From positions 311-64,310 of the IMG/VR virus record IMGVR_UViG_3300026291_000001: a stretch of 64,000 bases of DNA. One strand, 5' to 3'. The notes under the pieces are model-generated. The model did not search any database and was not told where the DNA came from. It was given only the letters and a program-made list of their open reading frames with translations. Origin of the DNA: a virus. This document shows positions 34,725 through 59,931 of the stretch, piece after piece. Every line of letters begins with the position of its first letter. The first letter of the stretch is position 1. Position numbers and translations under genes: made by a program.

Positions 34725-34760
34725 TTCAAGCAGCCTGCATACTGGCTTGGTAAGTATGAC
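34725..34760 (+). CRISPR. solitary Cas12m-type repeat
   Basis: AGCCTG CATACT GGCTTGGTA AGTATG AC (core 34732-34760), perfect 6-bp stem, same architecture as the repeats after cas12m. Confidence 0.8.
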
Positions 34761-35087: not shown

Positions 35088-35413
35088 ACGCCACTGCCTT
35101 CGACACGCACGAATTTGTTAAGAAATTAAAAGGCGTAGGCTTCAGTGAGGAACAAGCCGAAGTCTTAACCGAACTGCAAAAAACCACCGTAGTCAACACA
35201 CTGGAACAGGCTCGGCATGATTACGAGCTGGATAATCTGGCTACCAAAAGGGATTTAAAAGAATTTGAACTGACGGTTAGTCTGCAATTTAAACAAGTTG
35301 ATGTAAAGATAGCCGAAACTAAAGCCGAATTAATCCGTTGGGTGGTAGCTGTTGGTTTATTACAGACAGTGATTATTACCGGCTTGATTTTGCGCTTGAC
35401 GGGGAAAATTTGA
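35084..35413 (+). CDS. DUF1640/CCDC90-like membrane-anchored coiled-coil protein (paralog 1 of 3)
   Basis: AFDTHEFVKKLKGVGFSEEQAE...LATKRDL...C-terminal TM. Confidence 0.85.
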   Translation: MNATAFDTHEFVKKLKGVGFSEEQAEVLTELQKTTVVNTLEQARHDYELDNLATKRDLKEFELTVSLQFKQVDVKIAETKAELIRWVVAVGLLQTVIITGLILRLTGKI

Positions 35414-37308
35414 TGATCATAGTCCGGAACTACGGCCTTTTACCTCCCGATAATTGGGGAGACGATTGTCACGAACAGTTATTCATGATGAGCAAGTTCT
35501 GGAATCAGCTTGTTGAAATAGACCACGCCGACCGTGAGCGTTATCGCGCTATTCTTACCGAAGACCCGGAAGTAGCAACGCTGGAAGTCCGTCTTTTTGA
35601 AACATCCGAACAACTGTTAAGTTTATCGACCGAGCGTAAAAAACTCAGATCATCCGCGCGTTCTAAAAATGTGGATGACGGCCTGCTTGTGGAGCGGATT
35701 AAAATCCTGCGCGAGACTGAGAAATCAATCAAGGCTCAACTAAAACTAAGTAGGGCAGCGAAGCGGGAAGCGTCAAAACCTGCCTTGGATGCGCTTAATG
35801 AAGCCCATAAAGCCACCGTTAAACAGGCTCGGAAAACATGCGGCTTATTCTGGAGTAATTACAATGCCGTCCTTGAATCCTACCAGGCAGCTCGTACCAA
35901 GGCCATGAAAATAGGCGTCGATCTGCGCTTTCGAAGGTTTGACGGGTCCGGTCGCTTTGTCAATCAGGTTCAGGGTGGTATCGATGTCTCGGAGTTCATG
36001 CACGGTACTTATAGTATGGCAGGTATTGATCCCGAACTATTTCCGGTCCTTGGACGTAGCGGGAAAGACCGGCCACGGTTGCATATAACAGCATTTACAG
36101 GCCATGACGCAGAGGGTAAGCACTTTCGGCGCACCTTAAGCTTTCCTGTTATCCTGCACCGTCCGATACCAGAAGAGGTTAACGGGTATCCGGTACGCAT
36201 AAAAACGCTGACCGTATCAAAGAAACGAGTCAGCGCCGGACACTTCGACTGGAGCTTGACATCCTCCACCAACTTAAAAAGCGTGGATTCCCAAGTACAG
36301 CCTTTCATGCCCGAAAGGGATGACTCTGAAAGTCATCTTACTTCACCCCAGCCCGGAGTTAATCCTGATGAGGTGAAAATACGCAGCAACAGCGTACCCA
36401 ACAAATTAAGTATAGTACAAAACGCTTTTATTTATAGGTTGACCATTACCGCGACGACTGATGGTGAAGCGATAGCTAATGCAAGCCCGGTAGCGGCAGG
36501 CGTTAACCTGGGCTGGAAGCGGGAAGGCCAAGCCTTACGGGTTGCCACGATTTACGATAGCAACGGCGATAGCGAACATTTTAGACTTCCGGCCACGTGG
36601 ACGACTGCCATGGATTACGCGGAATCGCTACGCGGAGATATTGATGAAGTTACCAACTTAATGTTTACGGCGTTACTGGCGCAAAATATTGAATCGGAAT
36701 TGCTGACTAAAGCCAAGCGCCCACACCCTGCCTTAATTAACCGCTTTGCACGTGAAGCTGAAATACGGCCCATGCTACAGGCACATATTATTACCAAGGA
36801 ACTGGTTATTGAATCTATAGCTATGCTACCGGCGCTCAATGCGCTACCGTGTTATCTAGCGTGGTCACGTTATAAAGAGCGCGAGTTTAGCGGTTTAAGA
36901 ACCCGGCTACTTGGGCAACGCAAAGACTTATACCGGAACATTGCGGCTACATTAGCCAGTCGTTATTCAGTTATTGCAATCGACAATGCCGACTATGCGA
37001 AAATGGCCCGGTTGGAATCACGGGGCGGCGAGGAAAATGACTTGTTAAAGATTGCCCGGACGAACCGGTTCAGGGTATCTCCTTCTGAGCTGCGTTTGTC
37101 GATTGAGCAGGCGATAGCCAAGAGCGGCGGCGTAGTCGAACGGGTCGGACAGCAAAACGAATGCGCGAATTGTGGCAGGCCCGATAAACAAGATACAATA
37201 ATCTGGAAATGTGGGCATTGCGGGGCGGTGTATGACCAAGATGAAAACATGGCGAAATTGTTGATTCGTGGGTATCTTCCTGAGCAGTCAAAGGGTGCGA
37301 CAGGGTAG
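35413..37308 (+). CDS. cas12m: Cas12m (type V-M / V-U1)-like effector, predicted nuclease-dead
   Basis: 631 aa; YGLLPPDNW, long REC coiled coil, FWSNYNAVL...LRFRRFDGSGRFVNQVQGG, RuvC GVNLGW / IAIDNAD / YDQDENMA, zinc finger CANCG...CGHCG; repeats start directly after the stop codon. Confidence 0.85.
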   Translation: MIIVRNYGLLPPDNWGDDCHEQLFMMSKFWNQLVEIDHADRERYRAILTEDPEVATLEVRLFETSEQLLSLSTERKKLRSSARSKNVDDGLLVERIKILRETEKSIKAQLKLSRAAKREASKPALDALNEAHKATVKQARKTCGLFWSNYNAVLESYQAARTKAMKIGVDLRFRRFDGSGRFVNQVQGGIDVSEFMHGTYSMAGIDPELFPVLGRSGKDRPRLHITAFTGHDAEGKHFRRTLSFPVILHRPIPEEVNGYPVRIKTLTVSKKRVSAGHFDWSLTSSTNLKSVDSQVQPFMPERDDSESHLTSPQPGVNPDEVKIRSNSVPNKLSIVQNAFIYRLTITATTDGEAIANASPVAAGVNLGWKREGQALRVATIYDSNGDSEHFRLPATWTTAMDYAESLRGDIDEVTNLMFTALLAQNIESELLTKAKRPHPALINRFAREAEIRPMLQAHIITKELVIESIAMLPALNALPCYLAWSRYKEREFSGLRTRLLGQRKDLYRNIAATLASRYSVIAIDNADYAKMARLESRGGEENDLLKIARTNRFRVSPSELRLSIEQAIAKSGGVVERVGQQNECANCGRPDKQDTIIWKCGHCGAVYDQDENMAKLLIRGYLPEQSKGATG

Positions 37309-37311
37309 TGG

Positions 37312-37413
37312 TAAAAATAGCCTGCACAGTGGCTTGGTGACTGTGACGGCAAGTAATATAACTTACCTTATGGATGGTAATAACAGCCTGCACAGTGGCA
37401 TGGTAATTGTGAC
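37312..37413 (+). CRISPR. mini CRISPR array 1 (2 repeats, 1 spacer)
   Basis: Cores 37319-37347 AGCCTGCACAGTGGCTTGGTGACTGTGAC and 37385-37413 AGCCTGCACAGTGGCATGGTAATTGTGAC; 37 nt between cores. Confidence 0.88.
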
Positions 37414-37435
37414 GTATGTACATCGGCATAAACCC

Positions 37436-50238: not shown

Positions 50239-51418
50239 ATCGCTGTTAGAACCAAGCCGCTACAAAGGCATTTTTGGCGGGCGCGGCTCTGGAAAATCAT
50301 GGTTTTTTGCAGAGGCAATGATTGAACAACATATTATCAAAAAGATTAACTCCGTGTGTGTTCGGGAAATACAAAAATCACTGAGCCAGTCTGTTAAAAA
50401 ACTGCTTGAACTAAAAATAGAAAGCATGGGCGTCGGCCATTTATTCGATGTGCAAGAGTCCGTCATCAAAGCCAAAAATGGCGGTCAGATAATATTCCAA
50501 GGGATGCAAAACCACACCGCCGATTCTATCAAGTCTCTGGAAGGATATGATCTTGCATGGGTCGAAGAGGCGCAATCACTCAGTCAACGCTCTTTAGACC
50601 TGCTCAGGCCAACGATTAGAAAACCTAAATCGGAACTGTGGTTCAGTTGGAATCCTGGGCAGGACACGGACCCTATCGATGTGTTATTACGAGGAAAACA
50701 GCCACCTTCTGATGCTATCGTTGTACAAGCCAATTACTCGGATAATCCCTGGTTCCCTGATGTACTACGGCAAGAAATGGAGTACGATAAACGCCGGGAC
50801 CCTGATAAATACGCACACGTCTGGCTGGGTGAATATCTACGTAACAGCGAAGCGCGGGTATTCAGAAACTGGGTGATTGAAGAGTTTGAAGCGCCCCTGG
50901 GAACCTGTTTCAATTTTGGGGCAGACTGGGGTTACTCTAACGATCCCAGCGTATTAGTGCGTTGTTACCCGGATGGAAACAGGCTCTATATTGATTATGA
51001 GGCGTATTTGATTGGCTGTGAAATCGTTAATTTGCCTGCGTTATTCAACACCGTACCTGAGTCTGAAAAATGGTTCATTACAGCAGACAGCGCACGACCT
51101 GAAACAATCTCATATATGCAACAGCACGGCTATCCAAGGATGTCGGCAGCTATCAAAGGAGTTGGCTCGGTGGAAGAAGGCGTTACGTTTTTACAGTCGT
51201 TTGACATAGTAGTGCATCCTCGCTGCAAACATACGATTGATGAGCTATCGATGTACAGTTATAAAATAGACAAGCATACTGACCAGGTTATGCCGTTGCT
51301 GGAAGATAAGAATAATCACGTTGTAGACTCAATCCGTTACGCATGTGAAGGAGCAAGACGCTACAAACAAACTAAGTACATAGAAGAACCGCGAGAGGCC
51401 GCAGACTGGCGGTTTTGA
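50210..51418 (+). CDS. terL: terminase large subunit, PBSX family
   Basis: Walker A GGRGSGKS, Walker B WVEEAQ, nuclease GADWG...DSARPE...NHVVDSIRYA. Confidence 0.95.
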   Translation: MEIKTPEVFESLLEPSRYKGIFGGRGSGKSWFFAEAMIEQHIIKKINSVCVREIQKSLSQSVKKLLELKIESMGVGHLFDVQESVIKAKNGGQIIFQGMQNHTADSIKSLEGYDLAWVEEAQSLSQRSLDLLRPTIRKPKSELWFSWNPGQDTDPIDVLLRGKQPPSDAIVVQANYSDNPWFPDVLRQEMEYDKRRDPDKYAHVWLGEYLRNSEARVFRNWVIEEFEAPLGTCFNFGADWGYSNDPSVLVRCYPDGNRLYIDYEAYLIGCEIVNLPALFNTVPESEKWFITADSARPETISYMQQHGYPRMSAAIKGVGSVEEGVTFLQSFDIVVHPRCKHTIDELSMYSYKIDKHTDQVMPLLEDKNNHVVDSIRYACEGARRYKQTKYIEEPREAADWRF

Positions 51419-51420
51419 TT

Positions 51421-51516
51421 TGTAGGTACGTTGCTACATTATAATGTAGATATGTTGCTACATTTAATTGTAGGTACGTTGCTACATTGATAAATAAGTA
51501 GGTACGTTGCTACTTT
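51421..51516. repeat. 4 copies of a quasi-palindromic GTAGGTACGTTGCTAC unit
   Basis: Starts at 51421, 51445, 51469, 51497 (period 24, 24, 28). Confidence 0.85.
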
Positions 51517-51533
51517 CGCACTTTTGCGAATTG

Positions 51534-51677
51534 AACACTGTTTAATAGCTAAACAACGTTTAATTAATTAAAAAACAACGTTTAATTAATTATTGAACAA
51601 CGTTTAATTACTTATTAAACAATGTTTAATTAAAATTAAAAAACACTGTTTAATTAATTTATTAAACAACGTTTAAT
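51534..51677. repeat. 7 copies of AACAA/CC/TGTTTAAT, iteron-like
   Basis: Starts at 51534, 51552, 51574, 51596, 51618, 51642, 51665 (mostly 22-24 bp period); palindromic core TTAAAC-N3-GTTTAA; extremely AT-rich. Confidence 0.85.
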
Positions 51678-51715
51678 TATTTATTCCCCCTGCCGTGAGG
51701 CACAGGAGTTACACC

Positions 51716-53946: not shown

Positions 53947-54123
53947 ATGAGATTCCAACCCGAAACTACTAACGATTATTCACAATTCAACGAAGAACTG
54001 GGTTACTGTTCCAACTGCTTTGGAAGTGCGGAAGGGAATATTTCAGGCGACCGCTGCACAGTTTGCAACGGCTCCGGCATGGAACCCAATGGCAACGAGG
54101 ACGATAATGATGATTTCGACTAA
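53947..54123 (+). CDS. small zinc-finger protein (58 aa)
   Basis: CSNCFGSAEG...CTVCNGSG DnaJ-type CxxCxG motifs; acidic tail; not in the ORF track. Confidence 0.55.
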   Translation: MRFQPETTNDYSQFNEELGYCSNCFGSAEGNISGDRCTVCNGSGMEPNGNEDDNDDFD

Positions 54124-54136
54124 ACCGGAAGCACAA

Positions 54137-54673
54137 ATGAGTATTCAAACGATGATCGATGACGTTCTAAAGAAAGAAGGCGGATATACTGATAATCCAT
54201 TAGATCATGGAAAATGCACTAATATGGGCATCACCCTATCCACACTGGACGAGTTTACCGGAAAAAAAAATGGTAAGGACAACATCAAGGCACTAAGCCA
54301 GGCTGATGCCTGGCATATTTACTACAATAATTACTACATCAAGCCTGCTATCTATTCACTGCCGTCAGCGCTACAACCGCTTATCTTCGATATGGCCGTC
54401 AACCAAGGCCCTCACAGCGCCATTAAACTGCTGCAACTTGAATTAAAAACCCTGGGCTATATGTACCGCGCTGCCGATGGTATTAACGGACCAATCACTA
54501 TCGCCGCTTCAAAAAAAGCTATCAATGATCTAGGCGCTAAGTTTATTAATAGCGTGGTCAACCGGCGTATTGATTTTTATCATGCCATTGTCGAAGCCAA
54601 GCCCAACCAATCGATGTTTTTAAAAGGCTGGATCGCCAGGGCGGAAACTTTTAGAGAGCATGAAACTGTGTAA
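54137..54673 (+). CDS. endolysin, glycoside hydrolase family 108 with peptidoglycan-binding domain
   Basis: LKKEGGYTDNPLDHGKCTNMGIT, FDMAVNQGP, DGINGPIT, FLKGWIAR. Confidence 0.9.
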   Translation: MSIQTMIDDVLKKEGGYTDNPLDHGKCTNMGITLSTLDEFTGKKNGKDNIKALSQADAWHIYYNNYYIKPAIYSLPSALQPLIFDMAVNQGPHSAIKLLQLELKTLGYMYRAADGINGPITIAASKKAINDLGAKFINSVVNRRIDFYHAIVEAKPNQSMFLKGWIARAETFREHETV

Positions 54674-55924
54674 ACAATCACCTACCTGAAGGAAGGTGCT
54701 TTTATGGTAACTAAAATCGTTCCACATTAGGGCGGCTTACCGCACCCCTTGACGGACTGAAAAGCCTGTCAAACTTAGCAATATTCGACGCCGCATTGAC
54801 GTCGCTGTGGGATAAGTGACCACAGTTCTTACAGGAAAATTTATGTTTTACACGAGTACCGATAGCATCACAGACCGAGCAGGATTTGGAGGTATAAGCG
54901 GGATTAATGTATTTAATCTCGATACCGACCGCTTGTGCTTTGTAGGCAACAAAATCTTGAAGCTGTCTAAACGACCAGCGATGCAAGCGAGAGCGAACGC
55001 GCCTACCGGCTTTGATGTTATCGCGAATGTTGGTCAAGTCCTCAAGCCTGATTTCACTGGCATTGTAGGCAATGGCTTCTTGAACAATCGCTTTGGATAT
55101 TTCGTGGTTTACGTGTTTTACATGGGCTACTTCTTTGCCGGAGATTTTCTTCAGCAATTGCTTTGCCGAATTAGAACCGTTGCGTTGAAGTCTCTTGCGG
55201 TGCGCCAAGAACTTGTCTCGTTTATGGCGCAGTTCGCCACCACCAAACACCTTTCCGGTGCTGGTTGCAGCGATATTATTTTCACCAACATCAACACCCA
55301 TAGAGCCGTTTCCGGTACTGGGTGTAGCGTCGGGTATGTCAATAACCAGATTGAAGTACCACTGGCCTTTTCGTTTAAGCAATTCTGCTTCTTTGGCAAT
55401 ACCAGAGTTAAGCAGGTTAGCTTGATGCTTACCCAATATGTAATTGACTGCTATGCGGCCATCCAGCGTGAACAGGGAAATAACTTCTTTCTTGAACGAA
55501 TAGGTACGCTTATCAAAGTGCACGGAAGACGTTTGTTTAAAGCTGATAACCGGCCAGTCTTCTTTTTTGAGCTTGGGTTCATTAGCTACCAAGGACTTGT
55601 AAGACTGGGCAACATTAGCAATGGCATTACAGACCATTTGGGAGCCAAGAGCAGGCACTTGTTCCCTGACAGAATAGTAGCAAAGATGGTGCAAAGCTAC
55701 CCGATTCGAGCATTTGACGTGTGCGGAAAAACCAACCGCAATGTTACAAGCGTTAGAAAATTCAACTTGCAAAGCGTCGAGTTTAACGCTTTGTTCGATG
55801 GTTGGATCAAGCTTGATAGACACTGTTTTTTTCATATAGGAAACTATAGATTAGAAACAGCAAAAGATCAAGAGCACTCCTTACCTCCCCGCCCTAAAGA
55901 GACGGGGTATCACGGAGCTTTCCG
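54670..55924 (-). mobile_element. IS200/IS605-family element (tnpB only)
   Basis: Minus-strand left end CGGAAAGCTCCGTGATACCCCGTCTCTTTAGGGCGGGG after TCAT; right end AAAGCACCTTCCTTCAGGTAGGTGATTGTTTAC. Confidence 0.85.
54711..55835 (-). CDS. tnpB: TnpB RNA-guided endonuclease
   Basis: GVDVGE, RLEDLTNIR, HSDVNAASNI (D-E-D intact), CSVC...CKNC. Confidence 0.93.
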   Translation of the reverse strand: MKKTVSIKLDPTIEQSVKLDALQVEFSNACNIAVGFSAHVKCSNRVALHHLCYYSVREQVPALGSQMVCNAIANVAQSYKSLVANEPKLKKEDWPVISFKQTSSVHFDKRTYSFKKEVISLFTLDGRIAVNYILGKHQANLLNSGIAKEAELLKRKGQWYFNLVIDIPDATPSTGNGSMGVDVGENNIAATSTGKVFGGGELRHKRDKFLAHRKRLQRNGSNSAKQLLKKISGKEVAHVKHVNHEISKAIVQEAIAYNASEIRLEDLTNIRDNIKAGRRVRSRLHRWSFRQLQDFVAYKAQAVGIEIKYINPAYTSKSCSVCDAIGTRVKHKFSCKNCGHLSHSDVNAASNIAKFDRLFSPSRGAVSRPNVERF

Positions 55925-56113
55925 ATGATGTTTAACCAAACGGACAAAACCATGACCCCAAGCGAACATGCTACTTATGAAAAAATGCTGGAATTAATAC
56001 GGGACGCGCCGACCGATGAAGCCGCTTACAATGCGTCTGAAGTGTTATCGGTGCTGATGCATACGATAGTGATGCGGGTTGAGTCTGGGGTTAAGATGCC
56101 TAAAGAGGTCTAA
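55925..56113 (+). CDS. hypothetical protein
   Basis: 62 aa; a GGAG 5' of the ATG is supplied by the IS left end. Confidence 0.5.
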   Translation: MMFNQTDKTMTPSEHATYEKMLELIRDAPTDEAAYNASEVLSVLMHTIVMRVESGVKMPKEV

Positions 56114-56128
56114 ATCAGTAGCCCATTA

Positions 56129-56299
56129 GTCACAATTATGAAGCCATTGTGCAGGCTGTTGCTGACTCGAATATGCATCTAAGTACGTCACAATTACGAG
56201 GTCACTGTACAGGCTCTGACTTAAAAGTTAAATTTACCAAGCCAATTTACAGGCATTACGAGTGTCACATTTTCGATGCCAATGTACAGGCTTGAGTTT
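56129..56299 (-). CRISPR. delocalised mini array 2 (4 degenerate Cas12m-type repeats)
   Basis: 29-nt cores at 56129-56157, 56187-56215, 56227-56255, 56264-56292; inter-core gaps 29, 11 and 8 nt; all keep the 6-bp stem on the minus strand. Confidence 0.8.
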
Positions 56300-56442
56300 A
56301 TACTGTACCACCCGGACGGCTGACAACAATCCGGGCTTAACACTTTTAAAACACCCCCCTTAAACCGCCAAGTTCGAGGGGCTTATAACCCTATACCGCG
56401 CCTGTATTATAGCAGGTTCCAGAGAATTTAAACATGCGTTTT

Positions 56443-56715
56443 TCATACCGGTTTCACCAGATAGGCAATCGTCAACACAAGCAATATTTCCATGCCGATT
56501 ATCAGCGCTATGTTGAATAACAGCCTGCGTTCAAACTTCACCAGATCAAACGAGGTAAACAGTGTTTCCTTGGGTAACTCAGGCGGTATCGCGACAATAT
56601 CCTGCTTAATGGCCTCTACCAAGCCGCGCGTAATCGCTCCAGCAAGTTCTGTTTGCATCCCTTTATCCTCAAGGCTCTGCCTGAATTTTTGGGTATCAAA
56701 ATTGAGAGCGCTCAT
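56443..56715 (-). CDS. DUF1640/CCDC90-like protein (paralog 3 of 3)
   Basis: LNFDTQKFRQSLEDKGMQTELAGAI...TSFDL...TM. Confidence 0.7.
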   Translation of the reverse strand: MSALNFDTQKFRQSLEDKGMQTELAGAITRGLVEAIKQDIVAIPPELPKETLFTSFDLVKFERRLLFNIALIIGMEILLVLTIAYLVKPV

Positions 56716-56718
56716 CGC

Positions 56719-56886
56719 TCAATTATCCGTCTGGTTCCTGTTGGTTGGCTTGGCGTGTGTTTTGGTAATATGTTCACGCACTAAATTATCTATTATCAAG
56801 GTTAATGACAGCTCTTGTTCACTAGATAACTGTTTTAACAGCGTCCATGTTTTAGCTCTTATTCTTACCGTTTTATGTTCTATCAT
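56719..56886 (-). CDS. small RHH-like DNA-binding protein (55 aa)
   Basis: KTVRIRAKTWTLLKQLSSEQELSLTLIIDNLV; not in the ORF track. Confidence 0.45.
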   Translation of the reverse strand: MIEHKTVRIRAKTWTLLKQLSSEQELSLTLIIDNLVREHITKTHAKPTNRNQTDN

Positions 56887-57056
56887 AAAATTATGCCTAC
56901 ATAATGGCTACATTGTGTATAATAGTATAACACAATTATTTGGTAGACAAGTATACATTAAGTGAACAAATTGACAAAAACAACACCCACCGCTGGCACG
57001 GTGGGCCTTACAACACAACAACCGTCTGAATTATAGCAGACGATAGAGAGTTTAAA

Positions 57057-58346
57057 ATGATCATTGAAATATTCGATAGGCCGATAGCATTCCATAGATG
57101 TTTTGTTCCATTAACTGGATCAATTACAGCAGCTCTTATGTTATCACAGGCAATTTATTGGAGTAACAGAACCAAAAATAATGATGGATGGTTTTATAAA
57201 ACTCAAGAAGAATGGTTAGATGAAACAGGAATGAGCAGGAGTGAACAAGAAAAAGCCAGGGATAAACTACGTTGTACCGGGTTTTGGTTTGAAGAAAGGC
57301 GAGGCGTACCAGCAAAACTATTTTTTCGCGTAGATGAAAAAGAATTGTCAGCTAAGGTACATGGACAAAAACGAATTGTCGTTATGGAAGATGTATTGAA
57401 ACATTCAAAAAGAAGCTTGTTAGGGCTTTCTAAAACAAGTCTCATGCGAGCCATTAAAATAGGTGTTAACTCTGAATACGTAGATTATTCCAAGGTATTA
57501 GAAGAACATGGAATGCACTGCCATATCTGCGACCAAGCAATAACTAACACACTGGGACAACAACCAGATGCTTTATGTTTTGATCATGTTAAACCTATTG
57601 TTTTAGGCGGTGCTCATGTCTACGAAAACATAAAACCAGCGCATTTTAAATGCAATGGAAAAAAAGGTGGTAATTTTGAAGAAAAAGACTCGAATACCAA
57701 TGAAATTAAGAATGATTACGCTAAACATACTGATAAAATCCAGTCTGCTTACACTAAGCAGACTGGAGTGCTTACCGTAAACACTCAGGAGTGCTTACCC
57801 AAAGCAGACAAGAAGGATTACAGTAAACAGACTATTACAGAGAATACATCAGAGAATACATCAGAGAAGGTTGTTGTTGGCAAAACCGAAAATTCTTATT
57901 CTGAATCGATTGAACAAAACAAGGCCCTGAAAAAATGGCTCGAATATTTTATGAATGTAAAAGGCTATGCGCTGGTTGAGGTACAAACAGTCGATACAGT
58001 TCCTATGTTTCTGGAATGGGAAAAAATAGGAGTTACTGATGACGATATGGTATTTGCCGAGTTGGCAATAACGAAGTCGTTGAAAGGAAAGCGTCCTGTA
58101 ACGCCACTGTATTACAGGCAGATAGTACAAGATATTGTTGAAAAACGAAAAAGCCAGAACACCGCTAGAAACGGGTCTGGCTCCAATTCAAATAAAACTC
58201 ATAACCACGGTGATAATCATGAAAGACAAGGATACAACAATGAAACCCATTCTTCAACTGGTAGGAAACAATCTGCAATTGAAAGAATGGCAGCAAACTC
58301 AAGAGAACTCAGAGAAATACGGGCGCAAGAATCCAGAGTTATCTGA
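57057..58346 (+). CDS. replication initiator (lambda O-like wHTH) with an in-frame HNH domain
   Basis: RPIAFHRCF...AALMLSQAIYW...WFYKTQEEW..ETGMSR.EQ N-terminus; CHICDQ...FDHVKPIVLGG.H..ENIKPAHFKCNGKKG; ENTSENTSE linker. Confidence 0.8.
   Translation: MIIEIFDRPIAFHRCFVPLTGSITAALMLSQAIYWSNRTKNNDGWFYKTQEEWLDETGMSRSEQEKARDKLRCTGFWFEERRGVPAKLFFRVDEKELSAKVHGQKRIVVMEDVLKHSKRSLLGLSKTSLMRAIKIGVNSEYVDYSKVLEEHGMHCHICDQAITNTLGQQPDALCFDHVKPIVLGGAHVYENIKPAHFKCNGKKGGNFEEKDSNTNEIKNDYAKHTDKIQSAYTKQTGVLTVNTQECLPKADKKDYSKQTITENTSENTSEKVVVGKTENSYSESIEQNKALKKWLEYFMNVKGYALVEVQTVDTVPMFLEWEKIGVTDDDMVFAELAITKSLKGKRPVTPLYYRQIVQDIVEKRKSQNTARNGSGSNSNKTHNHGDNHERQGYNNETHSSTGRKQSAIERMAANSRELREIRAQESRVI
57747..57833 (+). 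repeat. putative origin iterons inside the initiator gene
   Basis: TTAC-N3-AA-N-CA motif with TTAC at 57749, 57772, 57795, 57818 (23-bp period) and one more at 57716. Confidence 0.6.
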
Positions 58347-58905
58347 TTCTGCAATTTTGTTCATTTGGGAAAAAATGACGGTTATCTATGCGGATCAATG
58401 GTTATCGCGTAATGGTCTGTTACATGAAAATGGAAAATATACCGCAGCGGCTAAGGAATGGGCAGAAACTTTGGCAGGTTTAACAGCTAGGCAAATAAAA
58501 TCAGGTTTTGATGCACTGAGAAAAAATGGGGAGGAATGGCCGCCCAATGCTATCAAGTTTAGAAAACTATGCCTAAGCCTGGAACTGGAAAGCTTACCGA
58601 CCGTTAACGAGGTTTACAACATACTGGCTTACAACAAAAACAAGCAAGGCAGCATCAAAGATCGGTTCGAGCATCCACTCGTGTTTAGCATAGCTAATGC
58701 AGTTGATCTGCAAAAGGTAAGATATGAAAGCTTGAAAACAGCCATGCAGCTCATAACCCCGGTTTATGATCGACTGATAAAACAAGGTTGGCCCGATTGG
58801 AAGCCTGAGCATTTGTTAACGCCTGCACTCATCGAGAAAAAGCCCACGGAAGTCAATAGCAATATAGCCCGTAAGTCATTTGCCGAGATGAGGAAATCAT
58901 TATGA
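58219..58905 (+). CDS. replication protein P-like helicase loader
   Basis: IWEKMTVIYADQW...EWAETLAGLT.RQIK.GF...WPPNAIKFRKLC. Confidence 0.7.
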   Translation: MKDKDTTMKPILQLVGNNLQLKEWQQTQENSEKYGRKNPELSDSAILFIWEKMTVIYADQWLSRNGLLHENGKYTAAAKEWAETLAGLTARQIKSGFDALRKNGEEWPPNAIKFRKLCLSLELESLPTVNEVYNILAYNKNKQGSIKDRFEHPLVFSIANAVDLQKVRYESLKTAMQLITPVYDRLIKQGWPDWKPEHLLTPALIEKKPTEVNSNIARKSFAEMRKSL

Positions 58906-58994
58906 GCGATAATACTTATTACACTATCAAGACATCTATGGCAAAAGTCGCCGATAACATAGAGCGCATGATGGAGTATGTTACGAGAACATAC

Positions 58995-59080
58995 GTCACA
59001 ATTATAAAGCCACTGTGCAGGCAAGATTAAATTATATGGCTACCGTCACAATTACAAAGCCATCGCGTAGGCAGATTAGA
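58995..59080 (-). CRISPR. delocalised mini array 3 (2 Cas12m-type repeats)
   Basis: Cores 58995-59023 and 59045-59073, 21 nt apart; minus strand TGCCTGCACAGTGGCTTTATAATTGTGAC and TGCCTACGCGATGGCTTTGTAATTGTGAC. Confidence 0.8.
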
Positions 59081-59237
59081 TTATGCCACAACTTGAAAAA
59101 CTAGCCGCAAAAAATAGCGCTGACGACACGAAAACAAAAAATAGGTACATTGGCTTATGTATAAAATATAAAAGGGCTTAGAACTAAAAAATGACTGACG
59201 CCGAATACCTGGAAAAAGAACTACTTCGACCGGAAAA

Positions 59238-59480
59238 TTAATCCTGCAAATCCAGGCGTTTCTCAATTCGCTGTATTTTCTCATACAGAAAATCCAGGGT
59301 TTTTTGTTGCCGGTCGTCAACATCAGCGCACGTTAATACCTCGTAGCGCACCGAACGTACGGAATTTTCAAAACTACCAAGCCTAAGCAAAATATCGCCC
59401 TGGATTTTCTTTACGTCATATATTTCAGACCGGATAAACCGAAGCTGTTCCAGAACAAGGTTACTCGTGTAATCGGTCAT
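59238..59480 (-). CDS. small coiled-coil protein (paralog 4 of 4)
   Basis: MTDYTSNLVLEQLRFIR...KIQRIEKRLDLQD. Confidence 0.7.
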   Translation of the reverse strand: MTDYTSNLVLEQLRFIRSEIYDVKKIQGDILLRLGSFENSVRSVRYEVLTCADVDDRQQKTLDFLYEKIQRIEKRLDLQD

Positions 59481-59748
59481 GGTGCTCCTTAAGCCAGTCT
59501 TTCAAAACGTTATTCATGCGCGTTTGCCAGCCCCGGCCGGTAGCTCGAAAAGCCGTCAGTACATCCGAATCAAAACGCACCGTGGTTGATACCTTGATGG
59601 GAGCTTTCTGCTTGCCACGGCCTTCTTTCAAGCCCAGCAAAGTAGTTTGTAACGATTCAGGCAAAGCCGAAAACGGCATAGCATTTTTAAAATCTTCTTC
59701 TGTCCACTCAGGATTATCATCATCAATCATTTCTGGATTTCGTTTCAT
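59461..59748 (-). CDS. brnA: BrnA antitoxin (no adjacent brnT)
   Basis: DDDNPEWTEEDF...RGKQKAPIKVSTTVRFDSDVLTAFRATGRGWQTRMN. Confidence 0.9.
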   Translation of the reverse strand: MKRNPEMIDDDNPEWTEEDFKNAMPFSALPESLQTTLLGLKEGRGKQKAPIKVSTTVRFDSDVLTAFRATGRGWQTRMNNVLKDWLKEHHDRLHE

Positions 59749-59931
59749 ACTGTTTTCTCTCTCTTTTGTTAATTGTAGTAACAAAAAAGAATTTAAGCAA
59801 GAAAAAAACCACCATGATTCATTTGCCATTTGAAAAAAAAAGCGAATTATGGTATACGTATGGCTCTCTAATCGTCACCGCGACGACACAGCGGATAAAC
59901 CCCTACGGGATTATATGAGATTTAAAAAACC

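Follow-up and report, generated by a model that had tools for sequence, protein, structure and literature searches.

Near spacer-less units in a phage type V-M array: probable by-products that expose a compact class of Cas12m arrays

Array 2, found on the minus strand at 56291-56129 of a phage genome, is a type V-M array by its scaffold and its cognate gene, in which two of four units (r1 and r2) fail in spacer length. These near spacer-less units are probably by-products which expose a class of compact phage Cas12m arrays. The window, meaning the whole stretch of DNA that was analysed, is 64,000 nt long and represents a nearly complete soil-phage record of 64.9 kb.

The phage genome and its Cas12m-type scaffolds

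A 28-nt core with the layout GCC-TG-stem6-loop9-stem6-AC is present in nine copies at four loci of the window. The cas12m gene (35413-37308, +) encodes a protein of 631 aa with the RuvC residues N365, D524, and D610, and a PDB search with this ORF matched Cas12m structures (E values of 3.6e-39 to 1.8e-12). It lies 19 kb from array 2 and, being part of the same genome, is presumed to encode the cognate effector. Array 1 (37320-37413) contains two repeats behind cas12m, and A0 (34733-34760, +) is a solitary core upstream of the cas12m operon with a U-rich tract after the core. Array 3 (58995-59072, -) consists of two cores with a 22-nt gap and a period of 50 nt, and is preceded by an extended -10-like box. 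Downstream of its last repeat, a perfect 7-bp hairpin was found at 58976-58994 (-; p = 0.005); weaker hairpins occupy both array 1 guide positions, 37348-37367 and 37414-37433 (+).

Arrays 2 and 3 are part of a ~6-kb block (53950-59930) which separates the portal gene from those for scaffold and capsid. This block also contains an endolysin gene, a TnpB element, replication genes, and a BrnA antitoxin gene. In the closest related phages, scaffold and capsid are found within a few kb of the portal, and the replication genes are located upstream of it. Between the terminase and portal genes (51415-51685) there are two AT-rich sets of tandem repeats with periods of 24-28 nt and 22 nt, possibly operator or origin iterons.

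Array 2 comprises four Cas12m-type scaffolds whose crRNA sense is the minus strand. The core-to-core gaps are 9, 12, and 30 nt with 28-nt cores, which confirms the 8, 11, and 29 nt that the initial annotation had given for 29-nt cores. The first core, r1 (56291-56264), has a paired stem (6/6) and pseudoknot (3/3) and carries a rare A at positions -10 and -14; the 9-nt gap behind it (ACTCGTAAT, 56263-56255) results in a period of 37 nt. The most diverged core, r2 (56254-56227), has an A/U-rich stem and lacks G(-3). A 12-nt gap (TTTTAAGTCAGA, 56226-56215) leads to r3 (56214-56187), which has an intact stem and a broken pseudoknot, as its loop reads GAC and not GGC; the initial annotation is silent on this defect. 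The 30-nt gap between r3 and r4 (56186-56157) contains a spacer of ~21 nt and 9 nt that can be recognised as coming from the 5' part of the full repeat. The terminal core, r4 (56156-56129), is intact, shows 26/28 identity to a canonical-array repeat (L002), and comes very close to the repeat used by a related system with a 62%-identical Cas12m. The guide position after r4 (56128-56109) overlaps the stop codon of a convergent ORF of 62 aa. No homologue was found for the 62-aa neighbour of array 2, and among 400 genomes of one class there was no match to a neighbouring protein.

The stems of all four cores are paired at 6/6 positions. This includes the core at 56227, for which a perfect stem had been claimed from the start: r2 reads TAAATT/AATTTA where the consensus is CACAGT/ATTGTG, which amounts to three double-sided changes. 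Given the number of substitutions and their random placement, the chance of intact stems is ~3e-5 for all four cores and ~0.008 for r2 alone. The A-U pair of r2 at -21/-5 is absent from 266 other units. At position -16, r3 carries an A where G is found in 266/266 other units, a count partly ascertained by the search patterns. The scaffold scores of r1 and r2 fall in the lowest 6-9% of the family.

Comparison with relatives supports the Cas12m identity of these scaffolds. Cas12m homologues of 57-66% identity adjoin canonical arrays in which the same core is part of a 37-nt repeat and the spacers are ~27-37 nt. This match to arrays beside cas12m relatives rules out that the repeats are part of the neighbouring TnpB element. 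Across 19 aligned copies, stem and pseudoknot are paired in 95% of cells (at least as high in 0/500 shuffles), and double-sided changes occur at 7 of the 10 scaffold pairs. The strict scaffold scanner gave no matches in 1.4 Mb of shuffled genomes; within the window, nothing was matched by Rfam. The register is common to array 2 and the PmCas12m structure, in which G(-28) to C(-26) pair with -15 to -17; in both, the stem starts at -23/-3 and AC stands at the repeat end. Stem, pseudoknot, and AC end are all found in r1, r2, and r4, and r3 lacks the middle pseudoknot pair. In PmCas12m, Asp475 contacts G(-3), the mature crRNA consists of ~33 nt of repeat and 17 nt of guide, 17 nt is also the optimum guide length, and activity is abolished by a single mismatch in the 12 nt next to the PAM (bioRxiv 10.64898/2026.03.26.714355). 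In Cas12m2, repeat nucleotides 1-7 are disordered, the duplex measures 17 bp, and an intermediate R-loop of 12 bp is formed (PMC10442227).

The r1 and r2 spacers were rightly described at the outset as too short for a normal 17-nt guide: with any handle included, r1 (9 nt) and r2 (12 nt) cannot form a 17-bp guide duplex, for which only r3 (30 nt) and array 3 (22 nt) are long enough. The accompanying estimate, a repeat of about 36 nt leaving spacers of about 1, 4, and 22 nt, does not hold. The canonical repeat of the closest relatives is 37 nt, and compact arrays keep ~28-31 nt, which leaves a guide of 6-9 nt for r1 and 9-12 nt for r2. Cutting as in PmCas12m, with its 33-nt handle, would leave guide remnants of 4 nt (r1) and 7 nt (r2). 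No unit of array 2 combines an intact scaffold with a free full-length guide.

A candidate sigma70 promoter (TTGTCA-18 nt-TATAAA, 56326-56297, -) has its predicted start at ~56292, the 5' end of the r1 scaffold. The element ends 5 nt before r1 and its PWM score exceeds that of all 300 random genome positions tested; it was not listed by the promoter scan because its -10 box is without the last T. An alternative extended -10 element (TGcTATAAT, 56414-56406, -) would give a leader of ~107 nt and is found within a palindrome repeated at 57023-57056. At the other two delocalised loci, -10-like boxes are located 7 nt before the first core, and none precedes the array behind cas12m. For the three delocalised loci, the boxes have p values of <0.003, 0.01, and 0.08 relative to random positions, uncorrected for the AT-rich intergenic background. 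Transcription of array 2 would presumably run along the minus strand and start at a promoter that belongs to the array itself. The palindromic element encloses TATAAT (-), and its two copies (56399-56432 and 57023-57056) are found on either side of a DUF1640-like gene, making the pair a candidate duplicated promoter or operator. A role of solitary repeats as 5' UTR operators found no support across the set, as 3/43 precede an RBS and ORF vs 15% at random.

Compact arrays and the origin of short gaps

Scans with scaffold patterns matched many viral and bacterial contigs, and gaps were then measured on whole records. The gap lengths were found to be bimodal, with a canonical mode of 42-48 nt and a compact mode of 17-23 nt; the latter is a class of compact phage Cas12m arrays. 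Outside the window there were 73 gaps of 15-28 nt, and a gap shorter than 15 nt was seen in 1/194. Compact arrays are clearest in three genomes (G014, G015, and G016), where the core and ~3 nt, mostly NAY, are retained. The resulting scaffold of 28-31 nt is followed by a gap of guide length, giving a period of 45-51 nt. Both G015 and G016 encode Cas12m homologues. In these genomes (L168, L169, and L170/L180, respectively) the arrays reach ~30 units with strongly covarying stems; G014, a provirus at 92% completeness, contains 35 units, and no cas12m match was obtained there with the queries used. Array 3 is a normal compact unit. The 21-nt gap reported for it is correct in length (22 nt with the 28-nt core) and is no oddity.

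Compensated stems are a signature of the compact class. At least one double-sided stem change is found in 35% of compact units vs 1% in canonical arrays, at least three in 7/74 compact units (gaps of 15-28 nt), and full stems in 65% of compact units. The perfect stem of r2 had been taken as a sign that guide-less units are maintained by selection; compact arrays with gaps of 15-28 nt are, however, equally compensated. Since compensated stems are routine in compact arrays, the r2 stem alone shows no guide-less selection. Random decay of the stems in relatives, which the initial annotation had named as the outcome that would speak against maintenance, was not seen; the short gaps are not kept by relatives either. 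A literature search covering papers open without subscription returned no description of compact or short-spacer V-M arrays, and array finders based on repeat identity probably miss them.

Other solitary or composite scaffolds were also seen. In a complete virus record (G005, L012:124-151), a promoter-like element precedes a lone scaffold repeat, and no cas12m or TNB-domain match was found in that record. As a candidate RNA anti-CRISPR of type V-M, this repeat is a clearer case than array 2. In L003:11827-12236, two scaffold types are mixed in one array and the pseudoknot is compensated (ACCG/CGGT vs AGCC/GGCT).

Gaps below 15 nt look to have a different local origin in each case and not to be conserved across the family. 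In G015, an unrelated phage, a 9-nt gap follows the first core of the array upstream of cas12m; this is the one gap below 15 nt among the 194. A relaxed search revealed a pair with a 5-nt gap in G010 which is lacking in its sisters G003 and G004 (98-99% identical), so such pairs are gained or lost when a repeat is inserted or deleted. In G001, a 16-nt gap includes 11 nt duplicated from the 3' end of the repeat itself, in G009 such a duplicate measures 13 nt, and L003 has a half-repeat joined without any gap to a repeat of the second scaffold type. In array 2, the r1 3' end and gap (GTGAC-A-CTCGTAAT) match the interior of r3 at 13/14 nt, the r1 period of 37 nt equals one full repeat without spacer, and the r1/r2 gap contains GTAAT, the start of the full repeat as found before A1b. 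Sequence comparison therefore points to the 9-nt gap probably being repeat debris. Array 2 repeats were absent from all 86 related-phage loci (1.05 Mb) found via capsid and replication P proteins.

Sister phages offer two further observations. In G004 (L058:4659-4706), the 20 nt after a solitary repeat are native genome sequence, and in the 98% identical sister G010 (L059:756-780) the same 20 nt are preceded by a TTC PAM and not by a repeat. By analogy with TnpB, a repeat sitting at a TTN site could make the DNA next to it serve as a guide that targets the allele of the sister phage, although this is a single case. Both indel breakpoints between these sisters (L058 and L059) coincide with scaffold repeats, which suggests that dispersed repeats are recombination points for cassette exchange between sister phages.

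Explanations for the short-gap units

RNA folding predicts that 56225-56211 (the r2 gap and the first 4 nt of the r3 5' arm) pairs with 56124-56109 in the r4 guide. The predicted helix has 15 bp with one bulge and three G-U pairs, a free energy of -18.1 kcal/mol, and pair probabilities of 0.72-1.0. It was equalled by 24 of 30,000 dinucleotide shuffles (p ~0.001) and is the most extreme of 28 arrays; corrected over these arrays, p is ~0.03. Five of its pairs follow from the AGCC/GGCU complementarity of the repeat, and for the part formed by spacer sequence only, 0.24% of genomic 20-mers do as well. The repeat which gives an arm to the helix, r3, is also the one with the broken pseudoknot. Guide sequestration as a family-wide feature is unsupported across the 28 arrays tested. 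A special r1-r2 cross-pairing was rejected, as every tandem cross-pairs through AGCC/GGCU.

About an even chance is given to the explanation that array 2 is a delocalised compact type V-M array which has been eroded by local rearrangement. This would build on what the compact arrays show, namely that phage V-M arrays shrink to a 28-31-nt scaffold with a guide-length gap and that their stems diversify by compensated changes. Cas12m would bind at each intact pseudoknot, with its cut falling 0-5 nt on the upstream side. Behind r1 and r2, the original spacers may have been lost or exchanged when repeats slipped, recombined, or underwent template switching, and what remains there would derive from repeats and from local inversion. 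Processing would then yield r1 and r2 scaffold RNAs whose guides, at 4-9 nt and 7-12 nt respectively, are too short for a 17-bp R-loop; r3 is probably poorly bound, and r4 would be intact with its guide paired. The compensated stems would mostly reflect past selection on the scaffolds while they bore guides, and any titration of Cas12m by the stubs would be a side effect and not the reason for their existence. Several points bear on the other side. All three units with a gap of 12 nt or less keep their stems (6/6) and pseudoknots (3/3), a small sample (n = 3) set against full stems in 65% of compact units. The 9-nt first gap recurs in G015. The unique A-U pair of r2 also counts against erosion, as it needs two changes or one template switch. 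Finally, the modelled helix, with its p of ~0.001 and three G-U pairs, hints at constraint at the RNA level; an inverted duplication, though, would yield such a helix without selection.

Possible, but doubtful, is a guide-less decoy maintained by selection and similar to Racr RNAs: the promoter at the first scaffold would produce a stable RNA of ~185 nt with several handles and no usable guide. It is equally doubtful that such an RNA titrates the Cas12m of a host, plasmid, or rival phage, or else buffers the phage's own enzyme. Promoter-like boxes 5-7 nt before the first core at all three delocalised loci, and not before the array behind cas12m, are consistent with a decoy, as are the missing combination of scaffold and guide, the near-identity of r4 to the repeat of the 62%-identical Cas12m system, the 9-nt first gap shared with G015, and the presence of repeats but no cas12m match in the near-complete virus records G005 and G014. 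Moreover, V-A Racrs are known to inhibit Cas12a (PMC10651486). However, the phage's own Cas12m would be titrated as well, r1-r3 carry changes at conserved positions (the reverse of what an optimised mimic would show), and the short gaps are sporadic and mutually unlike. The naked-RNA fold, modelled without pseudoknots or protein, gave scaffold stem pair probabilities of at most 0.11, which also speaks against a decoy; these values are low because neighbouring repeats cross-pair.

Somewhat less probable still, array 2 could be a purpose-built RNA, in which promoter-proximal Cas12m handles are joined to an anti-guide spacer that locks the terminal guide and to which the neighbour's pseudoknot has been ceded. 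If so, it would be a multi-handle sponge or threshold switch for a phage-borne Cas12m, of which no type V-M description was found in the searched literature.

The helix could also act as a locked-guide switch, although this is improbable. The r2 gap would be an anti-guide which, with the r3 5' arm, pairs the r4 guide at the cost of the r3 pseudoknot, and the guide would be released by processing, the Cas12m level, or the convergent late transcript. The strength of the 15-bp helix among the 28 arrays argues for this, as does the arm being taken from the one repeat with a broken loop. On the other hand, the helix is not family-wide, its p value is ~0.03 after correction, and inverted duplication suffices without selection, with five pairs coming from AGCC/GGCU. 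Searches of the phage, of related loci, and, by exact matching, of IMG/VR returned no target for the r4 guide. At the DNA level, the r4 guide was rejected as directed against its own array, where there is no TTN PAM and the seed is mismatched.

Short or read-through guides are very unlikely. Here r2 would supply a 12-nt seed, or a 17-nt guide reading into an uncut r3, for low-specificity repression of host or rival promoters, much as Cracr RNAs do with ~10 matching bases. Precedents are CracrVA1, which represses with Cas12a via 10 consecutive matches (bioRxiv 10.1101/2024.10.29.618823), and the 12-bp intermediate of Cas12m2; the broken pseudoknot of r3 may also protect against cleavage. However, the behaviour of PmCas12m, which works best at 17 nt and is inactive after one mismatch close to the PAM, makes the seed-only guiding proposed initially unlikely for r1, whose guide is at most 9 nt and apparently repeat-derived, and the r2 gap is predicted to be paired. 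PAM-flanked (YTN) seeds matched the phage at chance level, with a best match of 8 nt, and no PAM-flanked match of at least 10 nt to a cas or toxin promoter was found; both searches covered the phage genome.

For all nine units, self-matches of gap-only and read-through guides in the phage were at chance level; no guide matched 1.9 Mb of related loci with up to 2 mismatches, and IMG/VR contained no exact match to the 19-nt r4 guide or to the PAM-flanked guide of array 3. The array 3 guide (59044-59023, -) begins with GGTAGCCA, of which 8 nt match beside TTN PAMs at 35245 and 42129 (-). The match at 35245 falls in an LATK-coding motif of a DUF1640-like gene just upstream of cas12m. Three such seed matches vs 1.6 expected are not significant.

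An assembly artefact, with short gaps arising from collapsed repeats, is hardly credible: short-read assemblies can collapse repeat arrays and the comparison was made at the contig level, but many positions distinguish the four cores from one another, and a Logan contig is identical across the region. This contig, from the likely source run and hence not independent evidence, spans 54400-59700 with zero differences. Coverage from run X2 was limited to 55906-56084, and from run X3 to distant fragments; no RNA run was listed as containing the sequence.

Comparison with known systems

Array 2 shares its scaffold and an N-D-D cas12m with the known type V-M systems, namely MmCas12m/Cas12m2 (PMC10442227), GoCas12m and MsCas12m (PMC11013384), and PmCas12m, none of which needs a tracrRNA (PMC10442227; PMC11013384; bioRxiv 10.64898/2026.03.26.714355). 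A 2026 preprint describes a phage Cas12m that has an array next to it (bioRxiv 10.64898/2026.09.14.751636). In contrast to the published systems, array 2 is located 19 kb from cas12m, its repeats are diverged and cut to the 28-nt core, two gaps are below guide length, r3 has no pseudoknot, and a target was not found by the searches above. Compact scaffolds could serve as natural minimal, recombination-resistant units for multiplexed Cas12m repressors and base editors, and they constrain the Cas12m precursor cut site, which is not resolved in published structures. If the decoy or the locked guide were true, array 2 would represent either an RNA anti-CRISPR of type V-M or a guide switch of natural origin.

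Racrs are phage-encoded repeat mimics with a promoter-like element directly upstream and no known target (PMC10651486), features which array 2 resembles, and by analogy it could work like one. Racrs are solitary and unlinked to a cas gene of the phage itself, whereas array 2 has four tandem scaffolds in a phage that encodes Cas12m; because it is not solitary and the phage has its own effector, array 2 is not classed as a Racr. The Racr study tested types I-C, I-E, I-F, and V-A, and V-M is not mentioned there (PMC10651486).

Cracr and CreR RNAs (bioRxiv 10.1101/2024.10.29.618823; 10.1101/2023.03.03.530964) are also similar, being small stand-alone units with degenerate repeats that may redirect an effector to repress transcription. 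They differ in having guide-length spacers (21 nt in CracrVA1) that partly match a cas or toxin promoter beside a PAM; for array 2 no promoter match was found in the phage, and r1 and r2 are physically shorter. A further parallel is the silencing of extraneous crRNAs. The mutated terminal repeats of Cas12a arrays (PMC6610086) neutralise the guide position behind the terminal repeat, as would be the case in array 2, and the leader-repeat hairpin described for Cas13 likewise neutralises an extraneous crRNA (PMC13187072). In array 2, by comparison, the terminal repeat is intact and it is a predicted long-range helix with an internal spacer remnant that would block the guide.
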